Below are positions 5,806 through 64,000 of a stretch of 64,000 nt of DNA, piece by piece (the first letter of the stretch is position 1; each line of letters opens with the position of its first letter). The position numbers and the translations under genes are program-made. Under the pieces are notes generated by a model that saw only the letters and a program-made list of their open reading frames with translations, ran no database searches and had not been told where the DNA came from. Source of the stretch: a virus (taxonomy: Duplodnaviria > Heunggongvirae > Uroviricota > Caudoviricetes). The stretch spans positions 5,853 to 69,852 of the IMG/VR virus record IMGVR_UViG_2654587728_000014; one strand, 5' to 3'.

Positions 5806-6168
5806 TCATCTCCTTTTTTTCAGTCTGTCGGCAACAATGTCGGTTGCAGCTGGCAGGGTGACTGGCCAGAACAACATGACGGCGGTCATGTACAGGATGT
5901 AATGCGCGGTGTCGTAGTGCCTGCCATAGCCCAGGGAACGATGAAGTCTTGCGCTGCATGATCCTGCGTACATATACCAGAAAAGAAAACAGACAATGGT
6001 TTCAGTAGTCATTCTGAATACCTCCCCATTCGATATGAATATTACGGGCAGCAATGACAGGGTCGTTATTCCACCATGCACCTGACATGTATTTTTCAAC
6101 CTGTTCGCGTCCGGCAATAACACCAATTGTGATCCCCGGCCTGACGTTCTTAAAAAAGGCGCGGGCAA
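5806..6168 (-). CDS. small hypothetical membrane protein (probable start near 6012)
   Basis: Hydrophobic segments CFLFWYMYAG and ILYMTAVMLFWPVTL; abuts the GemA-like stop. Confidence 0.3.
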   Translation of the reverse strand: MPAPFLRTSGRGSQLVLLPDANRLKNTCQVHGGITTLSLLPVIFISNGEVFRMTTETIVCFLFWYMYAGSCSARLHRSLGYGRHYDTAHYILYMTAVMLFWPVTLPAATDIVADRLKKRR

Positions 6169-51995: not shown

Positions 51996-53041
51996 TGAGC
52001 AGAAAAAATAAAAAAGTGCGCATGAGTTCACGCATTGATCTCGCTGATGCGCTCAGGAAAGAATCATCGCTCAGTGCATTCACATTTGATGGTCCTTATC
52101 GCCTGACCGGGCATGACCTGCTGGACAATATGTACTGTGCTGATAACGGGCGGTGGTATGAAACCCCGGTGGACTGGTACGGTCTGGCAAGAGCAGCCCG
52201 GCAAACGTCCTGGCATCAGTCTGCGCTTTACTTTAAGCGCAATGTATTACTCGGTTGCTACATCCCGCACCCGCTGCTTTCCCGGCAGGATTTCTCGGCG
52301 CTGGCGCTGGACTGGTTTGTGTTCGGTAACGCATTCCTTGAGCTTCGAAGCAATATGCTCGGCGAACCGCTTAAATTACGGCACGCCCTGGCGAAATACA
52401 TGCGACGCGGAAGCGATCTTGAATCATGGTGGTATGTGCAGGATGGCAAGGACGCGTTTCAGTTTCGTCCTGGCAAAGTGTGCCACCTGATGAATCCGGA
52501 TATTAACCAGGAAATCTACGGCATGCCGGAATATCTTGGCGCATTACTCTCGGCCAGCCTTTCTCATTCGGCGGACATGTTCAGAAAACTGTACTACGAC
52601 AACGGATCCCACGCCGGGTGCATCATCTACATCGGTGCAGCGCAGGTAAACCGCGAAAGCATGGACTCCCTGAAAGAAACGCTACAGGGGGCACGTGGTG
52701 GTGGTGCGTTTAAAAACGTGCTCATTCATGCGCCCAACGGGGGCAAAGAGGGGGTGCAAATTTTGCCGTTCCAGCAGATCACCGCAAAAGATGAATTCAT
52801 GAATGTTAAGGCGGCATCCCGTGATGATGTGCTGGCTGCGCACCGCGTTCCGCCGCAACTGATGGGGGCGATGCCGGGCGAAAAAAGTGCGTTTGGCGAT
52901 GTGGAGAAGGCAGCGCGGGTTTACGCAATTAACGAGCTGATGCCCGTCATGGAGGCTATGAAGCACATCAATGACTGGCTTGGCGAAGAGGTGATCCGTT
53001 TTAACTCTTATGCTCTTCTTGATGAAAAAACAGCCCCGTGA
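51995..53041 (+). CDS. portal protein (P2 gpQ-like)
   Basis: 348 aa immediately after P. Confidence 0.8.
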   Translation: MSRKNKKVRMSSRIDLADALRKESSLSAFTFDGPYRLTGHDLLDNMYCADNGRWYETPVDWYGLARAARQTSWHQSALYFKRNVLLGCYIPHPLLSRQDFSALALDWFVFGNAFLELRSNMLGEPLKLRHALAKYMRRGSDLESWWYVQDGKDAFQFRPGKVCHLMNPDINQEIYGMPEYLGALLSASLSHSADMFRKLYYDNGSHAGCIIYIGAAQVNRESMDSLKETLQGARGGGAFKNVLIHAPNGGKEGVQILPFQQITAKDEFMNVKAASRDDVLAAHRVPPQLMGAMPGEKSAFGDVEKAARVYAINELMPVMEAMKHINDWLGEEVIRFNSYALLDEKTAP

Positions 53042-53057
53042 TGGGGCTGTCCTTTTT
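53025..53057. terminator. bidirectional terminator hairpin between portal and cargo gene
   Basis: AAAAAACAGCCCC-GTGAT-GGGGCTGTCCTTTTT overlapping the Q stop. Confidence 0.4.
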
Positions 53058-53619
53058 ACCAGAGTTGAACCATTTTCTGGGTGCCGTCAGGCTTGAGATT
53101 ATCAATTTCAGAGAGAACGTAATATTGAATGGCTTCACAAACGGTGGTGTAGGGTGAATTACCTTCTTTAAGTGGCACGATATTATTATTAACGCGAACC
53201 TGTATTTCATCGTTATACATTGCGATCGAAACAGGCGTGTGCACGAACGCGACTTCGCCAGGTGTGTCGTCAACCACCGTTTCAATACTAAAAGTCAGTT
53301 TTCGCTCATCATTGCTGCCCCGTGCTTTGGGGGTAGCGGCAGGGATCTGGGATAAAGGCATTCTGCGAAATCCTTCGGCTGCTTCCAGTCCGCATGAAAC
53401 GTAATGCTGGCGATTACCGTCGCTATCTGTCCAGGTCTGTGATGGCAGCTCCAGCGAGATTTCATAAGCATCAACAATGCCCTGGGCAAGGCGTACAAGC
53501 GGGGTCAGATCTTCATTGCGGCGAAAGCTCTCCTTTACCTGCTCCCGTTTTTCTCTTAACTGCTTGTAATTAATGACCATAAGACAGCCTCCATTGATTT
53601 CTTTGCTCGTATTTTGCAC
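53056..53619 (-). CDS. hypothetical cargo protein (ORFan)
   Basis: 187-aa ORF (likely start at MVINYKQ) convergent with Q and bounded by terminator hairpins. Confidence 0.4.
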   Translation of the reverse strand: MQNTSKEINGGCLMVINYKQLREKREQVKESFRRNEDLTPLVRLAQGIVDAYEISLELPSQTWTDSDGNRQHYVSCGLEAAEGFRRMPLSQIPAATPKARGSNDERKLTFSIETVVDDTPGEVAFVHTPVSIAMYNDEIQVRVNNNIVPLKEGNSPYTTVCEAIQYYVLSEIDNLKPDGTQKMVQLW

Positions 53620-54108
53620 TTATGAAGTATGGTCGGCAAGGTGCCGTATCGCTGACGCGCTTCGCTTGTCTGCTGCTTCGCCGGGGCATAAAAAATTTAT
53701 GCCCCGGCTCTCCAGCTCCTGTATCAATCAGATAATTTCACGACGCCTTCCAGTTTATCGCCACCATCGACGGTCAGACTCTTACGCAATTCCACCGCGT
53801 TGACTGTATGTTCTCGCTGCCTCAGTGCGATTTTGACGGCCTTACCTTTCACCCCATCAAATCAAAAGCCCTCACGCCTTTTTCATGCTCAGCGTGAGAA
53901 ATATGGCCATTCTGTTGTGTCTCTGCGACATCGTTCAGGGAATGCTATTTACCCCCTGAAACGCGGGCTGTTCCCCCGTCACCTGCGCGCAGAAAAAACG
54001 CGTTTTTTTGTGCACGTACGGATCCTTGACGGATCCAGCCACCACGCGGGCCGGAAGTACAAAAAGTCGTTCAAAAAAATTGTGCAAACTTGTGCACTAT
54101 CGTGCAAA

Positions 54109-54135
54109 CAAAAAAAGCGCCTTATCGGCGCTTCA
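54109..54135 (-). terminator. intrinsic terminator after small cargo gene
   Basis: On minus strand GAAGCGCCGATAAGGCGCTTTTTTT. Confidence 0.4.
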
Positions 54136-54141
54136 AAAGTA

Positions 54142-54411
54142 TCAATTGTTGCTGTTTATTAATCGCCAACCACGAACATATGCTTCATAGGCATCTCTGT
54201 GCCTTACAGTTCCAGCCTGGCTAAACGGAATGTTAGCTAAAACTAAATCATTCTGAGCCATAGCGCGTCCTTCAAGCGCATCTTTTATGCCTAGCTCAAA
54301 AGCACAGGCAGCGCATTTGTGCCGACCTTCTTGTCCTTGATATTCAGGGAGAGACAGAAATGTTGGATTATAACGATGAGGGTTCTTGCAAATACCTGTT
54401 TTAGCCCGCAC
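54142..54411 (-). CDS. hypothetical small protein with His/Cys cluster
   Basis: 89 aa; GTG start with GAGGT RBS; RHKCAACAFE cluster. Confidence 0.4.
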   Translation of the reverse strand: MRAKTGICKNPHRYNPTFLSLPEYQGQEGRHKCAACAFELGIKDALEGRAMAQNDLVLANIPFSQAGTVRHRDAYEAYVRGWRLINSNN

Positions 54412-54536
54412 TTTATTTACCTCATAGGAAAAATATGCGTGCCTTTACAGAGGTGCGTGTAAGCAATAAAATATACGACGCACATTTTGATTTACTTCGG
54501 AAGGCACGCATATCAGGTTAAGTGAGCCCGACCGAG

Positions 54537-54577
54537 TTTTACGCCCCAATAGTTGCTGCTATTGGGGCGTTTTGCAT
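54537..54577 (+). terminator. hairpin with T run (plus-strand terminator-like)
   Basis: TTTTACGCCCCAATAG-TTGCTG-CTATTGGGGCGTTTTG. Confidence 0.35.
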
Positions 54578-54775
54578 GGACAATGCCGCGCAATTATCTT
54601 GTCGCTCACAATGCGAACGATCTTACAAAAAGGCACATTACTGTCAAGATAATTGATCGTTTTAATCGATAGATAATAGACAATCTATTTGTTTAACAGA
54701 TCGATTATTGAAGTAAGTGTGCCAAATGGAATGATACTGTCTCTATAAACGTGAGCATTTTTCGCGCAGATGCTT

Positions 54776-55087
54776 TTACTCAGGAAATAACGCCCGGATA
54801 TTCCCAGCCATCTGGCTGGTTATCTTAGCCACTGGTGCAGACTGTGCTTCAAACTTTTTTGAGCTGATTTGTGTCACAGGTAACATCTCATCATCAGCCC
54901 ATGCGGCCAGTCGGTAAGCCTCTGCCGGATTCGTCTTCAGAAGTGCCAGCCCGGCCAGAAAAGCCACGCGTTGGCCGCTTTTGCGGGCTTCTGGTGTAAG
55001 GCTGTCCAGCCAGGCGCATGCTTCTCCTTCGTTCTTGACGGCGGCGGGCTTCAGATAGAAACTTATCCGTCTGGTTGGTGTCGTCAT
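54776..55087 (-). CDS. ParR/StbB-like partition adaptor protein
   Basis: About 104 aa from the internal Met; ISFYLKP start resembles R1 ParR IAFKLNP; start overlaps the ParM stop. Confidence 0.45.
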   Translation of the reverse strand: MTTPTRRISFYLKPAAVKNEGEACAWLDSLTPEARKSGQRVAFLAGLALLKTNPAEAYRLAAWADDEMLPVTQISSKKFEAQSAPVAKITSQMAGNIRALFPE

Positions 55088-55091
55088 TGGT

Positions 55092-56051
55092 TTACTCCTT
55101 GTCCATTGCGTACAGCCCATTAACCAGAGCAAACTGTGGCACCCCGTCCGCGATGAAAGTCGCATTAACTCCGCAGGCTTCGCGGATAGCGGGTGCCACA
55201 ATCTCCGCCCCGCCACCGACAACCATCACCCGCCCGTAACCCGAAAAAACCGCCAGCGCGCGGATCACGCGTTGTTTCAGTGTTTCTTCCTTTTCACGAA
55301 TAACCGCCATCAGGCTGGCGTAATGCGCGTCATTGTGGATGTGCTGGCGCAGCCAGGCTTCATTATGGCGATGTTCGATAATGGTATTGGCGATGTGGTG
55401 ACTGGTGCGCATACCGTTAGTGGCCATCACCGACAGTACGGCATCGGCCATAAGAGAAACGCCTACGTGTGGATCGCAAAACACCTGGCTGATACCTGCC
55501 AGTTGCCCCTGAACCTTTGCCACATCCAGCGTGGTTCCGCCCAAATCCACAATCAGCAGGGATTCAAACGGACTCATGTCAGCCAGTGCTTTAAAGCCAG
55601 CCGGAATGGATTCAGGCATAACCCGTACGTTACGGATAGTGAATGCTTCGCCGTTCTGGTACTCCACCGGGCGCATGACGTTCGCTTTTTTGCGGTTGAT
55701 GTTGGCCATGTCCGGCTGTGCGTTTGTGTCGAAATATTCGCTCAGTGGCAGGGTAACAACCACATCCACTTCCTGTGGCGTGATGTCTGATTTGACCAGC
55801 GCGTGATGAATGGCAATGACATTCACATCGCTGTACTGGTATTGCGTGTCGGTCGTCTGGACAAAGCGATCGCTGACCGGATCAAAACCATAGCGCACGC
55901 CATCAAGCATGTAGTTAGCAGGCTGCGAGCCACCGAACGGCGCAGACCATTCCGACTTGAAGCTGTTCGGGCTGATGGCGTTGCGGCGTTCGCCGTTCTC
56001 AGTCCATGCCAGCTTGATGTTGGTGGAGCCGTCGTCGATGTAAATTTTCAT
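55092..56051 (-). CDS. ParM/StbA-like actin-family segregation ATPase
   Basis: 319 aa; MKIYIDDGSTNIKLAW, SDVNVIAIHHAL, MPESIPAG and IVDLGGTTLD match plasmid R1 ParM as remembered. Confidence 0.7.
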   Translation of the reverse strand: MKIYIDDGSTNIKLAWTENGERRNAISPNSFKSEWSAPFGGSQPANYMLDGVRYGFDPVSDRFVQTTDTQYQYSDVNVIAIHHALVKSDITPQEVDVVVTLPLSEYFDTNAQPDMANINRKKANVMRPVEYQNGEAFTIRNVRVMPESIPAGFKALADMSPFESLLIVDLGGTTLDVAKVQGQLAGISQVFCDPHVGVSLMADAVLSVMATNGMRTSHHIANTIIEHRHNEAWLRQHIHNDAHYASLMAVIREKEETLKQRVIRALAVFSGYGRVMVVGGGAEIVAPAIREACGVNATFIADGVPQFALVNGLYAMDKE

Positions 56052-56074
56052 GTCGGTTTTCCTTATGTTGATTA

Positions 56075-56190
56075 ATTAATCGTTTACGGGATTCTGAAAT
56101 CCCGTTTTTGCCTGTTTTGTGCGCGCCTCATATATCGCTGCGCGTTTTTTGCTCATTTACGGGATTCGTGAGTCCCGTTTCTGTCTGTTT
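56075..56190. repeat. two ~40-bp direct repeats each containing a palindrome (candidate parC-like centromere)
   Basis: TTTACGGGATTCTGAAATCCCGTTTTTGCCTGTTTTGTG and TTTACGGGATTCGTGAGTCCCGTTTCTGTCTGTTTTTTG immediately upstream of parM; the second overlaps the 3' end of gene A. Confidence 0.3.
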
Positions 56191-58995
56191 TTTGTTTCCA
56201 CTGGTCAGGCCACCCCGCAGCAGGTCTGCTTTGCGGCTGGCGCGTTCAGTGGTTTCACTGATTCTCTGTGCGTGCTCTGCGTCGCGGATGGCGCGCAGCA
56301 TGTCAGAAAGCACGGTAACGGGTGTTTTCATGGTGTTCTGGTCCTGCTGAAGTGTGGATGCCAGGCGTGCGGCGGCTTCAGGGTCTGATGCCCCCAGCTG
56401 TGCCAGATAGCTGGCGACCGGGTTATGGCGGATCTCCGTGCTGCTTACGCCATGATTACGGCTCAGACGCTGCCAGAGCTGCGTGATTCGGCTGTCCGGG
56501 CGGGTATCCGGTTTGCGTACAATTTCAAATCCCTGCGGTGCAATGATGCTGCCGTCAACGTACAGACTGCCGCCCCGTAACAGGTGCTGCATCTGTTGTT
56601 CACCGATATGCAGGCCGAGAGATTCAGCAGACTCCCGCCATTCTTTAGCGAGTAACTCGTGGTTATCAGGCAAAGGCCGCTGCTGTTTGCGGCTCTGTGT
56701 CCAGTTCTGCATTTCATCGCTGCTGTTTTTTGCCTGTTTGTCACGAAGCGAACGCATCAGCGCCCGGCGTTCGTGCCGTTTCAGTGAGCGCATCCATTCA
56801 TTTACTTCAACGCCGTCAGGAAGCTGCGGCCACGGTGCTGGCCGTTCTTCCGGCTGTTCTGTCCCGTTGTTGCCTGTTTCCTGTACACGGGGACAGTTAT
56901 TGCCACGAGTCCAAGGGGCGGCAGGGCCGCCCTGAAGGTCAAAACCATTTTCGCGGGCGCTGTCTTCCGCTTCCGGTTTGCGTCTTACCAGCTTCCAGTT
57001 ATCCGGATGCGTGCATACGCGGGAAGACTCCCCAATGAGCGGCGACCAGATCCCGTAAATCTGTACGCTCTGTTCACCGTAATCGTTCAGCTCATCTGCG
57101 AGGTCGTAGGCGGTGCGAATCAGGTAGTCTTTGCGTGGAACAAGTACGCCACCCTGTTTCTCAATGTAGGTGGCAAAACATCCGGCATCAGCGGCAGCGA
57201 GTACCGCGTCCATTGCGTCATCCTTCAGCCGTTGCGGGCCTTCCGGATTGCGTGCCATCTGGCTGGCAAGGCGGCGCAGTTCACGCCACACCTGACGGGA
57301 GGGGATGCCAAAGAACTGGAACTGACGGACCCGGTGAAGGCGCGCCCAGCCGATGGCGCGCTCCACGCTCTCGGCCATTGATTTACCTGTTTCGTGGTCA
57401 ACGCGTGGCTTGCCCGTTTTCGGGTCGATGCCATCCACGGCGCGGCTGTCCAGGTTCTTTCCGATGTAGGTGGCGATGTAGCTGGTTGGCGTGCCTTTTG
57501 AGCCGTCGACGTACTCCGCCTTAAAACGCGGAGTTATGTCATCGCCCAGCTCGTGGCGGTCTTCCTGAATGGCAATATCGCAGACGTGGGACACGATGGT
57601 TTCAATCTCGTCCGGATGTGCAAAGACCATCATATGCCAGTGCACAGTGCCGTCATGGTGAGGCTCCACCGTGCGGATGCCATACCAGCGCAGGCCGTCG
57701 CGGTTCAGTTTTTTGCGGACCGCCGCAAAAAACGTGTTAACCAGGTAATCGCTGGAGTCGCGCATTGTGGCCCCGTTCCATTTGGGATTCGGATGACCGT
57801 TCTCCGTTGTTGCGTGGTATTTTGACGGGCAGGTGACAGTCAGAAACACCGCTCTGTCGCCACGGGCTTCGGCCAGAAGTTCCAGCCCCTTCATGGTGGC
57901 CATCATTTCTGCCTTACGGTGAACCGGGTTACTTACTCCCGCGTAATACACCGTCTCGAGATCAATCGTGAACCCGTCTTCATTTTCCAGCATGAAACTT
58001 TTCAGGAAATCGCGTGTTTTCTCGCGCTGTGCGCGAAACTCGCTTAACGCGTCCTGGCTCAGATAGGGTGATGTTTTTCTGGAAACCAGACAGGCGGCGC
58101 GGAGTTGTTCTTCCCGCCACTCGCAACGTAACAGCCACAGTTTGCGTTTCCACCATTCCGCACAGGTCAGGCGAAGGGTTGCGCCCGGCAGCAGCTCCGT
58201 GTCCGGTTCGTTCCTCCGGTCTTTGTCTGTTGTCAGTGCGTCATAATGTGGAGGCATGGCGTGCAGGTGTAACGCCATGCGGGCCAGCATCTGATACGCC
58301 TTCAGCGTTACATCCATGGTCAGCTCACCATCGGTCGCGCCAAAGCCATCGCAGAGTTTTTCGAAGGTGCTGCTGAACATCGCCGCCGTCATGGTGGCCA
58401 GCGTCTGTATCTGGTGCTTGTTGAGCTGCGGCAGGTAAAGCAAATCATCCAGGCGTTCGCGTCCGGCAAGGGAGCGATAACCCGGTGTCAGCCAGCGGTG
58501 GTCGGTGCGGTCCAGGCGTTCGAATATTTTGCGCAGGGTTCCGCGCGCGTAGCGTTCAGCCTGCCAGCTCTTTTTGCCTTTCTGGCGATCGGCTTCCTGT
58601 TTTTTGCGCAGGAAAGAGAGGTGGCGGCTCAGAGGTTTACGCAGATAAACGGGAAGCACCTTCAGTGTGGCAAAAGCACGGGCCACCGGGTCTTGTTCTG
58701 TTGCCTGACGCTTGCTGATGATGCTTTGTGCCAGCTTTTCACGCTGTCCGGCTTCCTCAAGGGATGCCATGAGTTTTTTACCCACGGTGGATTGTGCGAA
58801 AAAGGCTTCCTCCTTCGCTTCCTGTTCTTCCAGAGCCTTTTTGTCTGCCTCAAGGTAGTAACGGATGGCGCGTTGCAGGTCGGTTTCAGTTTCCTGCCTG
58901 TGCTCCGTAAATCTGGCCGGATCAATGGCTGGCCGTGGTTCATTCCAGCTCCATGCAAACTCATTCATGGCTGGTATCCCGTCACGCGCTGCCAC
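56128..58995 (-). CDS. replication initiation endonuclease (P2 gpA-like, rolling-circle HUH)
   Basis: 955 aa; HUH-like TVHWHMMVF and Tyr-containing YIATYIGK motifs. Confidence 0.8.
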   Translation of the reverse strand: MAARDGIPAMNEFAWSWNEPRPAIDPARFTEHRQETETDLQRAIRYYLEADKKALEEQEAKEEAFFAQSTVGKKLMASLEEAGQREKLAQSIISKRQATEQDPVARAFATLKVLPVYLRKPLSRHLSFLRKKQEADRQKGKKSWQAERYARGTLRKIFERLDRTDHRWLTPGYRSLAGRERLDDLLYLPQLNKHQIQTLATMTAAMFSSTFEKLCDGFGATDGELTMDVTLKAYQMLARMALHLHAMPPHYDALTTDKDRRNEPDTELLPGATLRLTCAEWWKRKLWLLRCEWREEQLRAACLVSRKTSPYLSQDALSEFRAQREKTRDFLKSFMLENEDGFTIDLETVYYAGVSNPVHRKAEMMATMKGLELLAEARGDRAVFLTVTCPSKYHATTENGHPNPKWNGATMRDSSDYLVNTFFAAVRKKLNRDGLRWYGIRTVEPHHDGTVHWHMMVFAHPDEIETIVSHVCDIAIQEDRHELGDDITPRFKAEYVDGSKGTPTSYIATYIGKNLDSRAVDGIDPKTGKPRVDHETGKSMAESVERAIGWARLHRVRQFQFFGIPSRQVWRELRRLASQMARNPEGPQRLKDDAMDAVLAAADAGCFATYIEKQGGVLVPRKDYLIRTAYDLADELNDYGEQSVQIYGIWSPLIGESSRVCTHPDNWKLVRRKPEAEDSARENGFDLQGGPAAPWTRGNNCPRVQETGNNGTEQPEERPAPWPQLPDGVEVNEWMRSLKRHERRALMRSLRDKQAKNSSDEMQNWTQSRKQQRPLPDNHELLAKEWRESAESLGLHIGEQQMQHLLRGGSLYVDGSIIAPQGFEIVRKPDTRPDSRITQLWQRLSRNHGVSSTEIRHNPVASYLAQLGASDPEAAARLASTLQQDQNTMKTPVTVLSDMLRAIRDAEHAQRISETTERASRKADLLRGGLTSGNKKQTETGLTNPVNEQKTRSDI

Positions 58996-59354
58996 TCCTG
59001 CGAGAAGAGGGCAGAAAGGCGGTTAAATTCAGCGGTGTATTCACTCAGCGAGGCACACCCGCCAGCAGTGCGATGCGCCAGCATTGCCGCAAATACGGAG
59101 GTCGGGGAGTCGTAATACGCCAGCAGTGATTCTCCGTGTGGTGTCAGGCAGTGCAACGCCAGCCCGTGTGGTGTGAAGTCCACGCGGTAGCAGTCGTCTA
59201 CTGTGAAATAAAGGGTGTCTGCATTCTCCGGTTTTGTGGTGCGTGCTCTGTTGTCACGACCACGGATGTAGAGATCAAATAATCCCTGAAGAACGGGAGC
59301 CAGACGGGTGTCCTGTGTGCGCACCCATCTTGTGAAGTCATGAGCGTCAATCAT
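58965..59354 (-). CDS. hypothetical early protein
   Basis: 129-aa ORF overlapping the start of A. Confidence 0.4.
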   Translation of the reverse strand: MIDAHDFTRWVRTQDTRLAPVLQGLFDLYIRGRDNRARTTKPENADTLYFTVDDCYRVDFTPHGLALHCLTPHGESLLAYYDSPTSVFAAMLAHRTAGGCASLSEYTAEFNRLSALFSQEWQRVTGYQP

Positions 59355-59426
59355 GCTGCAATTCTCTTTACTACAGATGTGCGAAGGCCTCCCGCCGCAA
59401 GGTGCAGGAAAGGCCCGGAACAGGAA

Positions 59427-59657
59427 TTAATGGGGTTTGTTTTGCTGCTCGATGAGCTGCTGAAGCTCGCGCAGATCATCCGCCAGATAGCTAAATACTG
59501 CGGCGGAGTAGGCGTTTGACAGCACGTGGCTGTGCTCATGTGACATGTTGATGAACATGATACGAGCGACGCGTGATGCGCGGTAAAGTCTGCGGTTGAT
59601 TTCAGTCTGGATGTGACGACGCGCAGCGTATGCGCGCTGTTGTTTGCGGTTTGCCAT
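59427..59657 (-). CDS. hypothetical small basic protein
   Basis: 76-aa ORF. Confidence 0.3.
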   Translation of the reverse strand: MANRKQQRAYAARRHIQTEINRRLYRASRVARIMFINMSHEHSHVLSNAYSAAVFSYLADDLRELQQLIEQQNKPH

Positions 59658-59979
59658 GGGGTGGCCTCTTTGGTTGTAAGTTTTGAAAACTCACCATCCA
59701 GAGGTGGAAAACTCGGGGTGGTGAGACGTACAGGGTTTCCACAACCGGCAACCAAAGAACCCGGCCCGACCGAAGTCGGCCCTGTACGCCCCACCATAAT
59801 TCGTGTGCGAAAAAGACGTGGCGATACGGTACGCACAAAAAAACCGCTGGCGCGGTTGTGCGCTTTGGTTGTCAGCGGGGTGGAAATCCCGGCACCCGTT
59901 TTATGAGGTGCAGCGGAAATGTAACCTGACTGATTGCGGCATGGCAAGCGGTTTTTTTGTGTGTGCATGTTCTGGTTTC

Positions 59980-60279
59980 TTACTGGTTCAGAAAAAAATC
60001 AAAAACCTTGTCAATGCGTTGCAGCAGCTCTTGCTGTATTGCTTCCGGCGTTTCCGGTTCGCCCGGCGCCTCCAACGTCGCGCAGAAATCAGCGATTTCA
60101 TGATGGAGCGTCAGGCGAATGGCAGGAGCCGTGGTTCTGGCGTGCTCCAGCTCATTCAGCAGTGCCAGCACAGCAGACGGCGAGAGCATTGCGCGAAATG
60201 CCAGTAATTTTTGAGGCGTTGCCATTCGTTGCAGGGCAAATGCCAGTTCGCGTAGCTTCTGGTGGTTGATGGTGCTCAT
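59980..60279 (-). CDS. hypothetical protein
   Basis: 99-aa ORF with start/stop coupling to neighbours. Confidence 0.35.
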   Translation of the reverse strand: MSTINHQKLRELAFALQRMATPQKLLAFRAMLSPSAVLALLNELEHARTTAPAIRLTLHHEIADFCATLEAPGEPETPEAIQQELLQRIDKVFDFFLNQ

Positions 60280-60542
60280 GCTCTGGCTTCCTTCAGTAGC
60301 TGGTTAAACATGTGAGTAAGTGGATTGCTACACCCGAACGGCATCGGGTTTACGTGGTAAGAAGCCTGGCCTCCTGTTTTGCGAGCGCGACCACCTGTGC
60401 TGCGGTTTGTTCTGATGACTAAGCCGCCGCGCCAAAGTCGGCGTAACTCAGCATTAATGGCTGTGGTTGGGGTATTCAGTGCTGCGGCGATCTCTCCGCC
60501 GCTACACCCCGGATGAGTAGCGATGTAGTCCAGAATGGTCAT
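60276..60542 (-). CDS. putative winged-helix DNA-binding protein
   Basis: 88 aa; ILDYIATHPGCSGGEIAAALNTPTTAINAELRRLWRGGLV. Confidence 0.4.
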   Translation of the reverse strand: MTILDYIATHPGCSGGEIAAALNTPTTAINAELRRLWRGGLVIRTNRSTGGRARKTGGQASYHVNPMPFGCSNPLTHMFNQLLKEARA

Positions 60543-60742
60543 CTGCGTGGCTCCTGTACCTGTCGGATAAGATTTACTCGCGCCACGTTGGTGGCGCAGA
60601 AGTAAGTGCCGTCAGTGAGGTAGATGTGGTGTGCATCCTTTTCCGAACGATGTTTGTCGATAGTGGTAATCAGGCGTTCGTCGACCTCGTATTCGCGCCC
60701 TCTGGAGGTAAAGCGAACGACGGGAAAATGCTTAATTGCCAT
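60539..60742 (-). CDS. hypothetical protein
   Basis: 67-aa ORF. Confidence 0.35.
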   Translation of the reverse strand: MAIKHFPVVRFTSRGREYEVDERLITTIDKHRSEKDAHHIYLTDGTYFCATNVARVNLIRQVQEPRR

Positions 60743-60765
60743 TGCGCCCCCTTTGTCCAGTAACC

Positions 60766-61182
60766 CTATGCGTTAAATACGGCACGTTGCGCGTCATCAA
60801 TGAATACAGCTTGAGAGCGTTCTATCAGGCGGAGATTTGTCAGAAGCTCTGACTCTTTTGTGTGGTAAGGCGTTATCAGGTATTTGCCGTGCAGTTCGGC
60901 AATAATGGTGTATTGCGTCATTATTGCCGAACCAAGAATGTAAATGCGGCGTCCAATGCTGGACGGATTCATGGCTGCAACTGTTGACTGTGTTTTAAGA
61001 GTATCGATTTCTTTGCCCTGTTCCTCAATAATTTTGGCTGCGTCAGCGGTGATTTTTGCAATGGTCAGTGCGTGAAGTGCTGCCATATGTTGGCTACGCT
61101 TCACGGCATCTTTAGCCATTTCATCTTCCGCTTCTGATATTTTTTTAAATGTGTCGATAATGCCTTCTTCTTTTGCTTTCAT
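60766..61182 (-). CDS. hypothetical protein
   Basis: 138-aa ORF. Confidence 0.35.
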   Translation of the reverse strand: MKAKEEGIIDTFKKISEAEDEMAKDAVKRSQHMAALHALTIAKITADAAKIIEEQGKEIDTLKTQSTVAAMNPSSIGRRIYILGSAIMTQYTIIAELHGKYLITPYHTKESELLTNLRLIERSQAVFIDDAQRAVFNA

Positions 61183-61384
61183 TTTATATCTCCGTTATTT
61201 ACGCGTGCGAATACCTCCATTAATACGGATGGTTTTCACGTTTTCTTATTTAATTTGATGTTTTATTTGTATCGTTATTCATCAGAGAAAAAACGCTCGA
61301 TCTTTTTCACTGAATTAATAATTCGCATAATCCCAATGGCGCAGACCACCGAAATAATCAGAACAAGCCATGAGATAAATATAC

Positions 61385-61630
61385 TCATGCGATATTTCCC
61401 AACTTATACGGTTCAATATGTTCCCCGCATTCTGCGGCACAGATCAGCTCGGAAAGTTCGTTAAGTGCATCCAGATCATCAGCGTAAAAAGCCACGTCAT
61501 ACAGACTTCGGATTGCTCTGGTCAATGAGTCACGGGCCGCACGTTCAGCATGAGCGCCTGATGCACTTAAGCGAAAATAAAAACGCTCAAGTGCTTTGTT
61601 AATGAGAGTTTTATATTCTTTGCCCATCAC
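61385..61630 (-). CDS. hypothetical protein
   Basis: 81-aa ORF. Confidence 0.3.
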   Translation of the reverse strand: MMGKEYKTLINKALERFYFRLSASGAHAERAARDSLTRAIRSLYDVAFYADDLDALNELSELICAAECGEHIEPYKLGNIA

Positions 61631-61638
61631 AACGCCCT

Positions 61639-62040
61639 TTAATCTGCTTTCTGTATTTCAGCTTCTGAATCCATACAAATAATTTCGATATAGGGTTCAT
61701 CGGCATTAACCTGGCGTGCCTTTTCAGCTTCGCTAATGATTTCTCGTACGGTCTGGTACGGAAGTTCCACAAGCAGTCGCGTGCCGTTCAGATAAACGTA
61801 AGTGGCTTCGTCGGTTCCGTTTTTACCCGCCGGAGTCACTCCGTCAATAGCGGATGCACGTAATAACAGTTCACCGCGAAAATCAATAAAACGGATAAAT
61901 ACACCTTGTGCATGGTCTTTGGTCATAAAGCGCCTGTTATAAATCAGCCTGTTTAATAAAACTTTGCCCGCGAAGCAGACGATCAACCGTGCGAAGTGCT
62001 TCGTATAATGTGAAATCCTGCCCGAACTGATTGTCGCCAC
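61639..62040 (-). CDS. hypothetical protein
   Basis: 133-aa ORF; partly overlaps 61937-62275 so one of the two may be spurious. Confidence 0.3.
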   Translation of the reverse strand: MATISSGRISHYTKHFARLIVCFAGKVLLNRLIYNRRFMTKDHAQGVFIRFIDFRGELLLRASAIDGVTPAGKNGTDEATYVYLNGTRLLVELPYQTVREIISEAEKARQVNADEPYIEIICMDSEAEIQKAD

Positions 62041-62275
62041 AGCTCAATGCAAAAATGCGGTTTCCGGTAAACGGATTGCGTGGGCATTTGTGGATCACGA
62101 TTCCAGCTTTCTCAATCAGCCAGGCGTGCTCGCCGATTTGTTTTACTGGGTAGCCATCCGGCGTTGCGTGTGTATCACTCAGGCTGTAGCGAGAGTTGCT
62201 GCGTGATGCACTGGTAGTGAAACGGTTAGCGTGGCGTTCTGTTCCGGTACGAAAATTACGGCGTTGCTTCAGCAT
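61937..62275 (-). CDS. hypothetical protein
   Basis: 112-aa ORF. Confidence 0.3.
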   Translation of the reverse strand: MLKQRRNFRTGTERHANRFTTSASRSNSRYSLSDTHATPDGYPVKQIGEHAWLIEKAGIVIHKCPRNPFTGNRIFALSCGDNQFGQDFTLYEALRTVDRLLRGQSFIKQADL

Positions 62276-62289
62276 AAAATGACACCTCG

Positions 62290-62568
62290 TTATTTTGTCA
62301 TCTGCACGTATTTTTCTGCGCTCCTGATTGTTTTCAGGAAAAGAGCGAAGAGATTTACTGTGCGTCTTGAGTTCTTTTCATCCTGGTTGATGGGAATTGA
62401 ACCTCTGTCAGCCTGTCTTTTCACTGTGTTAACAGCTTGGTTGGTACGCTTTGCGTAATCTTTCAGGCTTTCTTCAAGTACTGGTAACCCATGCTCATCG
62501 CGGTAGGGATAGAACGCTGCTAAACGCTCAAAGTCTGCCTGTTCGTGTGTGTTCAGGACTTTTGCCAT
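62290..62568 (-). CDS. putative early lytic regulator (Cox/Apl position)
   Basis: 92 aa, first gene of the minus-strand early operon, divergent from the C repressor; assignment by position only. Confidence 0.35.
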   Translation of the reverse strand: MAKVLNTHEQADFERLAAFYPYRDEHGLPVLEESLKDYAKRTNQAVNTVKRQADRGSIPINQDEKNSRRTVNLFALFLKTIRSAEKYVQMTK

Positions 62569-62664
62569 GTGTGATAACCTGCGCTATCTGTGGTTGTTTG
62601 TGACTTGGTGTACTTATAAGTACACCTTGTGCGCAAGCTTAGTGTACTTATAGGAACACTGTCA

Positions 62665-62973
62665 ATGCTTATCGGTGAAAAAATTAGAGTGATTCGTGAA
62701 TCAGAGGATTTAACGCGCGAAGAATTTTGCGGCCTGATTGATGTGCCTATCGGCACTTTGCGTCGTTATGAAACGGGGCGGATTGAAAACATAGGGGGCG
62801 AAGTGCTTATCAAGATTGTTAATCACCCTCGCTTTTTTAAGTACATGAATTGGCTTATGACGGGAAAAACAAATGAGGCTGCTGGGCAGATCAGTCCGTC
62901 TCTCTCCCCTGATGGGCCAAAAAGCACATCGCCTTCTCAAAAACCCCGCAAGACTGGCACACAGCCCGGCTAA
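62665..62973 (+). CDS. immunity repressor (P2 C-like)
   Basis: From internal Met MLIGEKIRVIRESEDLTREEF; HTH and C-terminal GQISPSLSPDG...SQKPRKTG parallel the P2 C repressor as remembered. Confidence 0.65.
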   Translation: MLIGEKIRVIRESEDLTREEFCGLIDVPIGTLRRYETGRIENIGGEVLIKIVNHPRFFKYMNWLMTGKTNEAAGQISPSLSPDGPKSTSPSQKPRKTGTQPG

Positions 62974-63022
62974 TCATGGAGCGCTGGGGGCATGGTGGTC
63001 TTGTAACGCTGGGGTTTCACGA

Positions 63023-64000
63023 ATGAGCATAAAATCAATTCCGGGAGGGTATCTTCTTGACATACGCCCGGAGGGGCGTAAAGGCAAACGCATTCGTAAA
63101 AAATTTAAAACGAAATCGGATGCAGTTTTATATGAGCGGTGGGTGCTGGCGCAACAGCATAACAATGAGTGGAAAGGAAACTCTATTGATCGCCGTCCGC
63201 TGTCAGTGCTTATTGACTTGTGGTGGAAATACCACGGCCAGCTAATGAAGTCAGGGCATAACACGCGCCTTAAATTGCTGCGCTTGAGTGAGGCAATGGA
63301 TGACCCGTGCGTGCATAAACTTAATACAACGATGCTCACCGAGCTACGTGTGTCCAGGATAGAGCAGGGGATACAGCCCAGCACCATAAATCGAGAGATT
63401 GGGGCGTTAAGCGCGATGTTTACCGCACTCATCTCATCCGGCCATTTTCTTAACGATAACCCCGTTCAAGGCCTTAAAGGAATGAAGGTTAACGAGCGCG
63501 AAATGGGATACCTGAGTAAGTCTGAATGTGTTCAGTTGCTGGATGCACTGGCTGAAAATCCCGATGAACGGCTGGCTGTCGAAATCCTTCTGTCGACCGG
63601 GGCGCAATGGGGCGAGGTAGCGGCACTGGAGCAGCGCCGTGTTCTTCATTGTCGAATCACTTTTTCAAAAACGAAGAACAGCAAAAACCGTACCGTTCCT
63701 ATTTCTGAAAGCCTGTTTGAAAAGATCAAAAAACGGGGCGGGAAACTGGTGTTTCCGACGCTGGATTATTCATTGGTTCGCGATGTCATCAAAACGGTCG
63801 CACCTGATGTTCCTGACGGCCAGGCTGTTCATGCGCTGCGCCACACCTTCGCCAGTCATTTCATGATGAACGGCGGCAATATTCTGACGCTCCAGAAAAT
63901 TCTGGGGCACGCAAAGATTCAGACAACGATGATTTATGCCCATCTTGCGCCGGATTACCTGCAGGATGCGGTGAGGTTTAATCCACTAGGAGGTGCTTAA
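63023..64000 (+). CDS. int: tyrosine integrase (P2 Int-like)
   Basis: About 325 aa; C-terminal catalytic motifs HALRHTFASHFMMNGGNILTLQKILGHAKIQTTMIYAHL; stop at 63998-64000. Confidence 0.85.
   Translation: MSIKSIPGGYLLDIRPEGRKGKRIRKKFKTKSDAVLYERWVLAQQHNNEWKGNSIDRRPLSVLIDLWWKYHGQLMKSGHNTRLKLLRLSEAMDDPCVHKLNTTMLTELRVSRIEQGIQPSTINREIGALSAMFTALISSGHFLNDNPVQGLKGMKVNEREMGYLSKSECVQLLDALAENPDERLAVEILLSTGAQWGEVAALEQRRVLHCRITFSKTKNSKNRTVPISESLFEKIKKRGGKLVFPTLDYSLVRDVIKTVAPDVPDGQAVHALRHTFASHFMMNGGNILTLQKILGHAKIQTTMIYAHLAPDYLQDAVRFNPLGGA

Follow-up and report, generated by a model that had tools for sequence, protein, structure and literature searches.

The described partition systems that most resemble the locus considered here are ParMRC, from plasmid R1, and the related StbAB systems found on conjugative plasmids of enterobacteria (IncI, IncK and IncL/M plasmids, and par1 of pB171), in which repeats, parM and parR follow one another in that order. 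Two further systems have been described in elements that are normally integrated. SrpMRC of the SXT/R391 integrative and conjugative elements (ICEs) is switched on only when the element is activated, and it stabilises the excised form, a transient one that replicates by rolling circle (Carraro et al. 2015, PMC4489591). AlpAC of the Corynebacterium glutamicum prophage CGP3 is induced early, and without it the circular phage DNA does not reach its full copy number (Donovan et al. 2015, PMC4446434). Here, a parMR cassette was analysed in a 64,000-nucleotide stretch of tailed-phage DNA (IMG/VR record IMGVR_UViG_2654587728_000014, positions 5,853 to 69,852; hereafter, the window), where it lies directly behind the replication gene gpA of an integrating, P2-like phage lineage. 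The comparisons described below show an intact, selected ParM-ParR pair of the R1 type, accompanied by two conserved dyads. The explanation that fits best as a whole, which we favour with moderate confidence, is that this is an intact, phage-owned type II (ParMRC) module that would be expressed with the early operon and would act transiently, segregating or positioning phage circles that have been excised or are replicating.

The carrier of the cassette was identified as an Escherichia coli prophage, P2-like and of the P88 type (genus Xuanwuvirus, Peduoviridae). Window positions 53648-63984 share 99.5% identity with a P2-like prophage annotated in E. coli O157:H7 FRIK944, integrase included, and an integrase gene ends at window position 64000, in agreement with the preliminary description of the locus, which had proposed an integrase-bearing, P2-like prophage. 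All elements of the cassette were found where that description had placed them, in the order two repeats, parM and parR on the minus strand. The parM gene (55092..56051, minus strand) encodes a protein of 319 amino acids that has full-length matches to two Pfam domains, StbA_N (E=9.7e-81) and the ParM C-terminal domain (E=3e-68), and aligns with ParM of plasmid R1 (PDB 1mwk) over residues 1-316 (E=7.7e-92) with about 50% identity along the full length. The proposed assignment to ParM/StbA was thereby confirmed, and the protein belongs to the R1-type partition family and not to a non-partition family of actin-like ATPases. The phosphate-binding, catalytic and adenosine motifs are conserved, and DDGST, E147, DLGGTT and GGGA are invariant across the phage clade.

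The gene directly downstream, parR (54776..55087, minus strand), starts four nucleotides past the parM stop codon, with its Shine-Dalgarno sequence within the final parM codons. With the ATG at 55087 taken as its start and the stop at 54776, its product has 103 amino acids, whereas a mechanical listing of open reading frames (ORFs) runs to 148 amino acids from an upstream TTG. The product, a centromere-binding adaptor by homology, matches PF10784 (Plasmid_stab_B, the StbB/ParR family) with E=9.8e-24. As a query by itself it matched no solved structure, but a profile built from phage and plasmid ParRs, the window ParR included, matched ParR of pB171 (2JD3) with E=3.7e-15, and the earlier suggestion of a ParR-like protein of about 104 residues was therefore upheld. 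An AlphaFold2 model of the monomer had a predicted local distance difference test (pLDDT) score of 55, which was too low for a fold search; the model was not used, and the profile search was employed instead. In alignments, ParR has an invariant RRISFYLKP at the N-terminus, then two helices and a linker that evolves fast, and a conserved NI(R/Q)ALFPE at the C-terminus. Plasmid ParRs have both the N-terminal motif and the C-terminal one (NIxxLFPE; RKNVQHLFPDDD and similar) in common with the phage protein. This is the layout expected of a small adaptor located directly downstream of its ATPase gene, with a predicted ribbon-helix-helix region at the N-terminus and a predicted ParM-binding segment at the C-terminus.

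Upstream of parM lie two direct repeats of 42 nucleotides (56080..56121 and 56153..56194, minus strand), which are 81% identical, are spaced 73 bp start to start, and each contain a 20-bp dyad of the form ACGGGA-N8-TCCCGT. The sequences of the two dyads are ACGGGATTCTGAAATCCCGT and ACGGGATTCGTGAGTCCCGT. The proximal dyad (56086-56105) is a candidate ParR site 35 nucleotides upstream of the parM ATG, and the distal dyad (56159-56178) is a candidate site within the last 20 or so codons of gpA, the co-oriented gene directly upstream (56128..58995, minus strand; 955 amino acids), which encodes a rolling-circle replication endonuclease (Pfam Phage_GPA, 5.4e-129; 'replication endonuclease' in RefSeq). 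As the gpA stop codon (56130-56128) sits between the repeats, in the inter-dyad core (56106..56158, minus strand), and the 3' end of gpA overlaps the distal repeat, the latter is coding sequence. Thus, the two palindromic direct repeats of about 40 bp that had been reported upstream of parM are real, but the second palindrome is imperfect and the distal repeat is not intergenic. At zero mismatches the dyad pattern was unique to the parM upstream region within the window; the search was also defined for up to three mismatches, at which 0.65 matches would be expected in the window by chance.

The repeats proved to be conserved well beyond the window. A survey of 51 distinct upstream sequences from IMG/VR and other sources used a search pattern that fixed one dyad and left the other unconstrained. 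The CGGGA/TCCCG core was essentially invariant in each of the two dyads, and polymorphism was concentrated in the 8-nucleotide centre and the flanks. Every locus with two dyad matches had both the 73-bp spacing and a parM gene. Related cassettes in other genera contain CGGG-N10-CCC(G/A) elements 72 bp apart, the distal one again within the end of gpA (Plesiomonas), or two (T/C)GGG-N10-CCCA dyads 73 bp apart (Hafnia). A spacing of 72-73 bp, equivalent to about seven helical turns, would place both sites on one face of the helix. The ParRs of Serratia and Enterobacter phages have the strand motif NRKISFYLKP rather than TRR(I/V)SFYL(K/N)P, and their cassettes contain a different pair of inverted repeats of 14-20 nucleotides, which is the pattern expected if adaptor and site co-evolve.

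The cassette was detected in about a quarter of complete E. coli genomes (1304 of 5426), and the same gpA type in 1442 of them, indicating that parMR is tightly linked to this type of gpA. Fourteen phage records, including P88, Citrobacter phage phiSM and several E. coli isolates, carry it at 94-98% DNA identity. More distant ParMs of intermediate identity were found in Plesiomonas and Hafnia (62%), Serratia (58%) and Enterobacter (53%), and all of these are encoded in P2-like prophages just downstream of gpA, followed by variable cargo (HicAB, a KAP NTPase and others) and by the ogr and portal genes. Relatives at 48-51% identity were located on an ICE and a plasmid, and the nearest genuine plasmid ParMs (IncI, IncK, IncL/M and similar) reached at most 52%. 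In a neighbour-joining tree, which was computed without support values, the phage-borne ParMs formed one clade apart from those of plasmids and ICEs, and across these phages ParM (53-62%) is more conserved than gpA (30-56%) or the portal protein (30-47%). These comparisons show parMR as a lineage-conserved, vertically inherited module fixed directly after gpA in P2-like prophages of five genera. A recent capture from a known plasmid was considered and rejected, given the limit of 52% for plasmid ParMs and the outcome of a tblastn search with ParR (E<=1e-3), which detected no relative in 72,556 plasmids or 50,697 phage records outside P88-like elements. The possibility that the cassette is cargo of a variable hotspot was likewise rejected, since its linkage to gpA holds in different genera, the variable part beginning within or after parR. 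The P88-type variant appears narrow in host range, since only three species representatives in GTDB carry its ParR clade. A P88 prophage of the E. coli type, with a ParM 97% identical, was also seen in a 226-kb contig of the GTDB genome 'Vagococcus sp. WN89Y' (NZ_JBQPOM010000071.1), where it is probably assembly contamination.

Within the P88 group, the ratio of non-synonymous to synonymous substitution rates (dN/dS) of parM was about 0.07, and some 5,660 intact copies were counted in protein clusters (P0093, P0101 and P0090, the relatives of window 55092-56051). Truncated parM alleles are nevertheless common in E. coli, among them a form with a frameshift after residue 224 (a cluster of 649 sequences) and a form of 188 amino acids (555 sequences, seen on a 5.1-Mb contig), and their frequency shows that the lysogen does not need the module.

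The candidate parC differs from that of the plasmid relatives in having two conserved dyads with no consensus promoter between them. In all four plasmid parC regions compared, a sigma-70 promoter matching the consensus at 9-11 of 12 positions was present 56-69 nucleotides before the parM ATG, whereas none of five phage-borne parM upstream regions contained a promoter above 8/12, and the best -35/-10 match in the window was 7/12. A separate promoter scan also found no promoter-like site in the inter-dyad core, and no terminator-like site was found on the coding strand of the gpA-parM interval. With no strong autonomous promoter and no terminator after gpA, parMR is most likely transcribed with the early replication operon. 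In P2, the early operon is repressed in the lysogen, and gpA drives lytic rolling-circle replication that yields monomer circles. An element, ATTAATCAA, was observed at 56066-56074, about 15-25 nucleotides before the parM start and just upstream of the ribosome-binding site; it is common to the E. coli, Plesiomonas and Hafnia cassettes despite a ParM identity of only 62%. In the transcriptome and proteome literature on enterohaemorrhagic E. coli that covers CP-933T, no data on parM or parR were found.

Under the favoured explanation, parMR would be expressed once infection or induction has made the genome an extrachromosomal circle and, by analogy with the control of the P2 early operon, would be silent in the repressed lysogen. 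The N-terminus of ParR would bind the two dyads on circular phage DNA, either after infection or after excision and gpA-driven replication, and its C-terminal helix would dock on the ends of ParM filaments. The ParR-capped filaments of this polymerising ATPase would then push the circles apart. Phage DNA would in this way be dispersed through the cell, or reach both daughter cells, ahead of its integration, re-integration or packaging. A more far-reaching version, which we put forward tentatively, would make the ParMRC module an ancient, lineage-defining part of the replication operon in a large branch of the P2-like phages, acting as a viral cytoskeleton in which the two-dyad centromere embedded in gpA tethers newly made rolling-circle monomers to ParM filaments. 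Dispersal or partitioning of the circles might then result in more lysogenisation or less loss after abortive excision, or might aid packaging.

Several points weigh against the favoured explanation. The lack of a consensus promoter does not prove that a promoter is absent, and the conserved ATTAATCAA element could be a weak -10 sequence or, alternatively, a translation signal. Two dyads are far fewer than the sites of characterised parC regions, that of R1 having ten iterons, and those found here might be only operators. The frequent truncation of parM, which makes the module dispensable to lysogens, fits a role at the phage stage but also fits weak selection. To our knowledge, P2 itself and phage 186 manage without such a module. 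Finally, filament formation by this ParM, binding of this ParR to the dyads and the timing of transcription are predictions from sequence.

The alternative that survives best, though we consider it improbable, is that P88-like phages persist as low-copy plasmids, at least in hosts that lack the attachment site. An episomal phase had been proposed in the preliminary description, and Rousset et al. 2022 noted that about a quarter of P2-like phages have a putative partition system, "perhaps" for plasmid maintenance (PMC9122126). The cassette is indeed a genuine partition system by its family membership, and one circular 'plasmid' record of 34.5 kb (NZ_CP148288.1, 1-34461) corresponds to an entire P88-like genome with integrase, cox, parMR and a Hok/Gef gene, while a Plesiomonas contig of 32 kb has the size of a phage and a boundary near int. 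However, spontaneous induction also yields separate circular contigs, and the location of the cassette in the complete E. coli genomes was overwhelmingly chromosomal, with 1450 chromosomal places compared with 2 on plasmids. Among the 72,556 records of PLSDB there were only seven matches, namely five prophages in records of 228 kb-1.4 Mb, one linear phage fragment of 26.8 kb and the single phage-sized circle. The annotations of both the FRIK944-equivalent prophage and the 34.5-kb genome include an integrase, list no plasmid-type replicon, and have gpA as the sole replication function, which acts lytically and from a repressed early operon. Neither an autonomous replicon in lysogens nor a plasmid-type replication module was therefore found, and the cassette also lacks the autonomous promoter of its plasmid homologues. 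The record 'Escherichia phage 520873' was considered as evidence of an episome and was rejected, being linear, with fragmented genes, and ending in the host gene yecA. Given that the element has no annotated plasmid replicon and that its copies almost always sit in chromosomes, stable existence as a plasmid prophage is unlikely or at most rare, and the proposed episomal phase was not substantiated as a stable lifestyle; a transient extrachromosomal role is plausible and is the reading preferred here.

It is more doubtful still that the locus serves lysogenic conversion or conflict, with ParR or ParM of the prophage interfering with incoming plasmids or related phages through incompatibility, exclusion or defence. 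The locus lies in the interval between gpA and the portal gene, a known anti-phage hotspot of P2-like phages (PMC9122126), and ParR alleles differ strikingly, at 98, 83 and 55% identity, beside parM genes and dyads that are nearly identical; this diversity could reflect such conflict. The diversity, however, is in the linker, which is not conserved in plasmid ParRs either, whereas the N-terminus expected to read the DNA is invariant. Within the P88 group the N-terminal 64 residues are constrained and the linker is not, and the synonymous divergence (dS) of parR is about 0.6 in the linker and 0.09 in the N-terminal part. The gene is also mosaic, DNA similarity to 705R2-type phages ending about 18 codons into parR (break near 55033), which seems to put the edge of the variable hotspot within this gene. 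The module itself is constant beside gpA across genera, with the variable cargo located beyond parR, and it has no evident promoter for expression in the lysogen. With plasmid ParMs at 52% identity or less and their ParRs undetectable by tblastn (E<=1e-3), cross-reaction with known plasmids is unlikely. A reading of the cassette as a defence system was rejected because PADLOC was negative for ParM, ParR and their neighbours and because, at this defence hotspot, the module is conserved while the cargo varies. The exclusion or addiction role that had been suggested thus gained no positive evidence, truncated alleles being common in lysogens.

The view that the palindromes are RNA or transcription elements (hairpins, terminators or mRNA stabilisers at the end of gpA) and not ParR-binding centromere sites was judged to be just as unlikely. 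Both palindromes score as terminator-like hairpins followed by T-runs on the plus strand, and the coding-strand RNA folds well (z = -4.1). The T-runs, however, are antisense to gpA and parM, and the coding strand is A-rich after the hairpins, so the palindromes are not intrinsic terminators for the operon. The Plesiomonas elements (CGGG-N10-CCCG), with 4-bp arms and a 10-nucleotide centre, would form poor hairpins, yet their dyad symmetry and 72-bp spacing are kept. Among the E. coli sequences it is the arms that are conserved, and the changes in the centre are uncompensated. No Rfam family was matched, a scan of 52900-56700 giving nothing above threshold. Since the coding-strand hairpins have no U-runs and the Plesiomonas versions fold poorly, the dyads are favoured as protein-binding sites over RNA elements. 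Lastly, that a plasmid cassette was captured once and is carried as a functionless, decaying hitch-hiker is very improbable: truncated parM alleles are frequent, but the dN/dS of about 0.07, the synteny kept across phages whose portal proteins are only 30-47% identical, the conserved ParR motifs and dyads, and the roughly 5,660 intact copies all argue against it.

The surroundings of the cassette are more variable. Between parR and the portal gene lies the cargo (53056..54411, minus strand), which comprises two ORFs belonging to PHROG families of unknown function; it is not part of the par module and marks the true variable hotspot. This stretch differs among the P88, 705R2, FRIK944, Serratia and Enterobacter loci, and the neighbouring ORFs at 53056-54411 had no Pfam or PADLOC matches. 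The ORF of 187 amino acids (53056-53619, minus strand; PHROG 5091, of unknown function; segment 53011-53647) adjoins the portal gene; since the FRIK944 prophage, elsewhere 96-99% identical, lacks this ORF, it is regarded as variable hotspot cargo. The ORF of 89 amino acids (54142-54411, minus strand; PHROG 3941) is preceded by a promoter-like TTGACA-N16-TAAGAT, and an AT-rich stretch with AATCGAT...ATCGATT inverted repeats lies just downstream of parR, both in the region 54620-54647 / 54655-54715. At 54541-54570, a hairpin with a 12-bp stem is followed by a T-run on the plus strand, which is terminator-like for rightward late transcription; its similarity to sar RNA is weak and below threshold (22 bits, where the gathering score is 43; E=0.44). 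A search with a 19-nucleotide P2 cos sequence, intended to locate cos, gave no match.

The P88-like prophage is split in the window. A segment encoding the tape-measure protein, gpU, an invertase and tail-fibre assembly is reversed at 4831-508, and the remainder occupies 40432-63984. Between these parts (5000-40432) lie Mu-like genes, which include an rve transposase, a MuB-like AAA protein and a Mu portal, sheath, tape measure and tail fibre. The arrangement looks as if the tail-fibre/invertase segments of two prophages had recombined or undergone an inversion with each other, and the phage copy in the window may therefore be defective.

The feature is real and was correctly identified, and it is ordinary as a discovery, as it is already annotated and has been remarked upon. 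RefSeq names the products 'plasmid segregation protein ParM' and 'plasmid partitioning/stability family protein', PHROGs lists both as 'partition protein', and with these annotations and the remark of Rousset et al. 2022 both the finding and its interpretation are already on record. No functional study was found in a search of the literature. What is new here is that the module is conserved within its lineage, that its two-dyad architecture extends into gpA, that it lacks the promoter of its plasmid relatives and that its copies are almost exclusively chromosomal. The point of interest is the role that a segregation machine may have for an integrating phage, given that about a quarter of complete E. 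coli genomes carry one in an integrated prophage. If it were to have no measurable effect, the cassette would be a well-annotated passenger. If the favoured explanation holds, it would provide a very compact natural ParMRC system for mechanistic work, with two sites and a ParR of 103 amino acids, and if the module proved to be a viral cytoskeleton, a small temperate coliphage would for the first time have been shown to possess an actin-based system for positioning DNA.

In comparison with known systems, R1 ParMRC and StbAB resemble the cassette in their proteins: ParM has all nucleotide-binding motifs and about 50% identity from end to end, and ParR belongs to the same Pfam family with a common C-terminal motif. 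In a Salmonella plasmid relative, the repeat blocks are also 73 bp apart. The phage cassette differs from these in being located in an integrating phage, in having two dyads instead of iteron arrays, with the distal site inside gpA and no strong promoter between the repeat blocks, and in its separate ParM clade. Its ParR, at 103 amino acids, is also shorter than the plasmid ParRs of 124-147 amino acids, and its middle segment does not align with the part that is conserved among the other ParRs. Among the 50,697 phage records the only other match was the P1-like temperate tailed phage D6, which has a StbA-type ParM of 47% identity. D6 and P1 lysogenise as plasmids with a plasmid replicon of their own and do not integrate, whereas P88-like phages encode an integrase and are found integrated.

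SrpMRC and AlpAC are the closest functional precedents. The prophage CGP3 likewise combines an integrated state with an actin-like protein, an adaptor and repeated adaptor sites (alpS) upstream of the operon, the resemblance being drawn from descriptions of that system; its gene order and protein family differ, CGP3 is a large, cryptic actinobacterial prophage, and AlpC has been proposed to carry DNA to the membrane for replication and not to segregate it. SrpMRC offers the nearer parallel in lifestyle, as a type II partition system in a normally integrated element that replicates by rolling circle when excised. It differs in that its function is demonstrated, that of the phage cassette being a prediction, in that SrpR has no recognisable homology to ParR, of which the phage protein is a clear family member, and in being located in the int operon of an ICE, whereas the phage cassette follows the replication gene. 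Should the phage module act on transient circles as proposed, active partition during a brief extrachromosomal phase, so far shown for SXT/R391 ICEs, would be extended to tailed coliphages.

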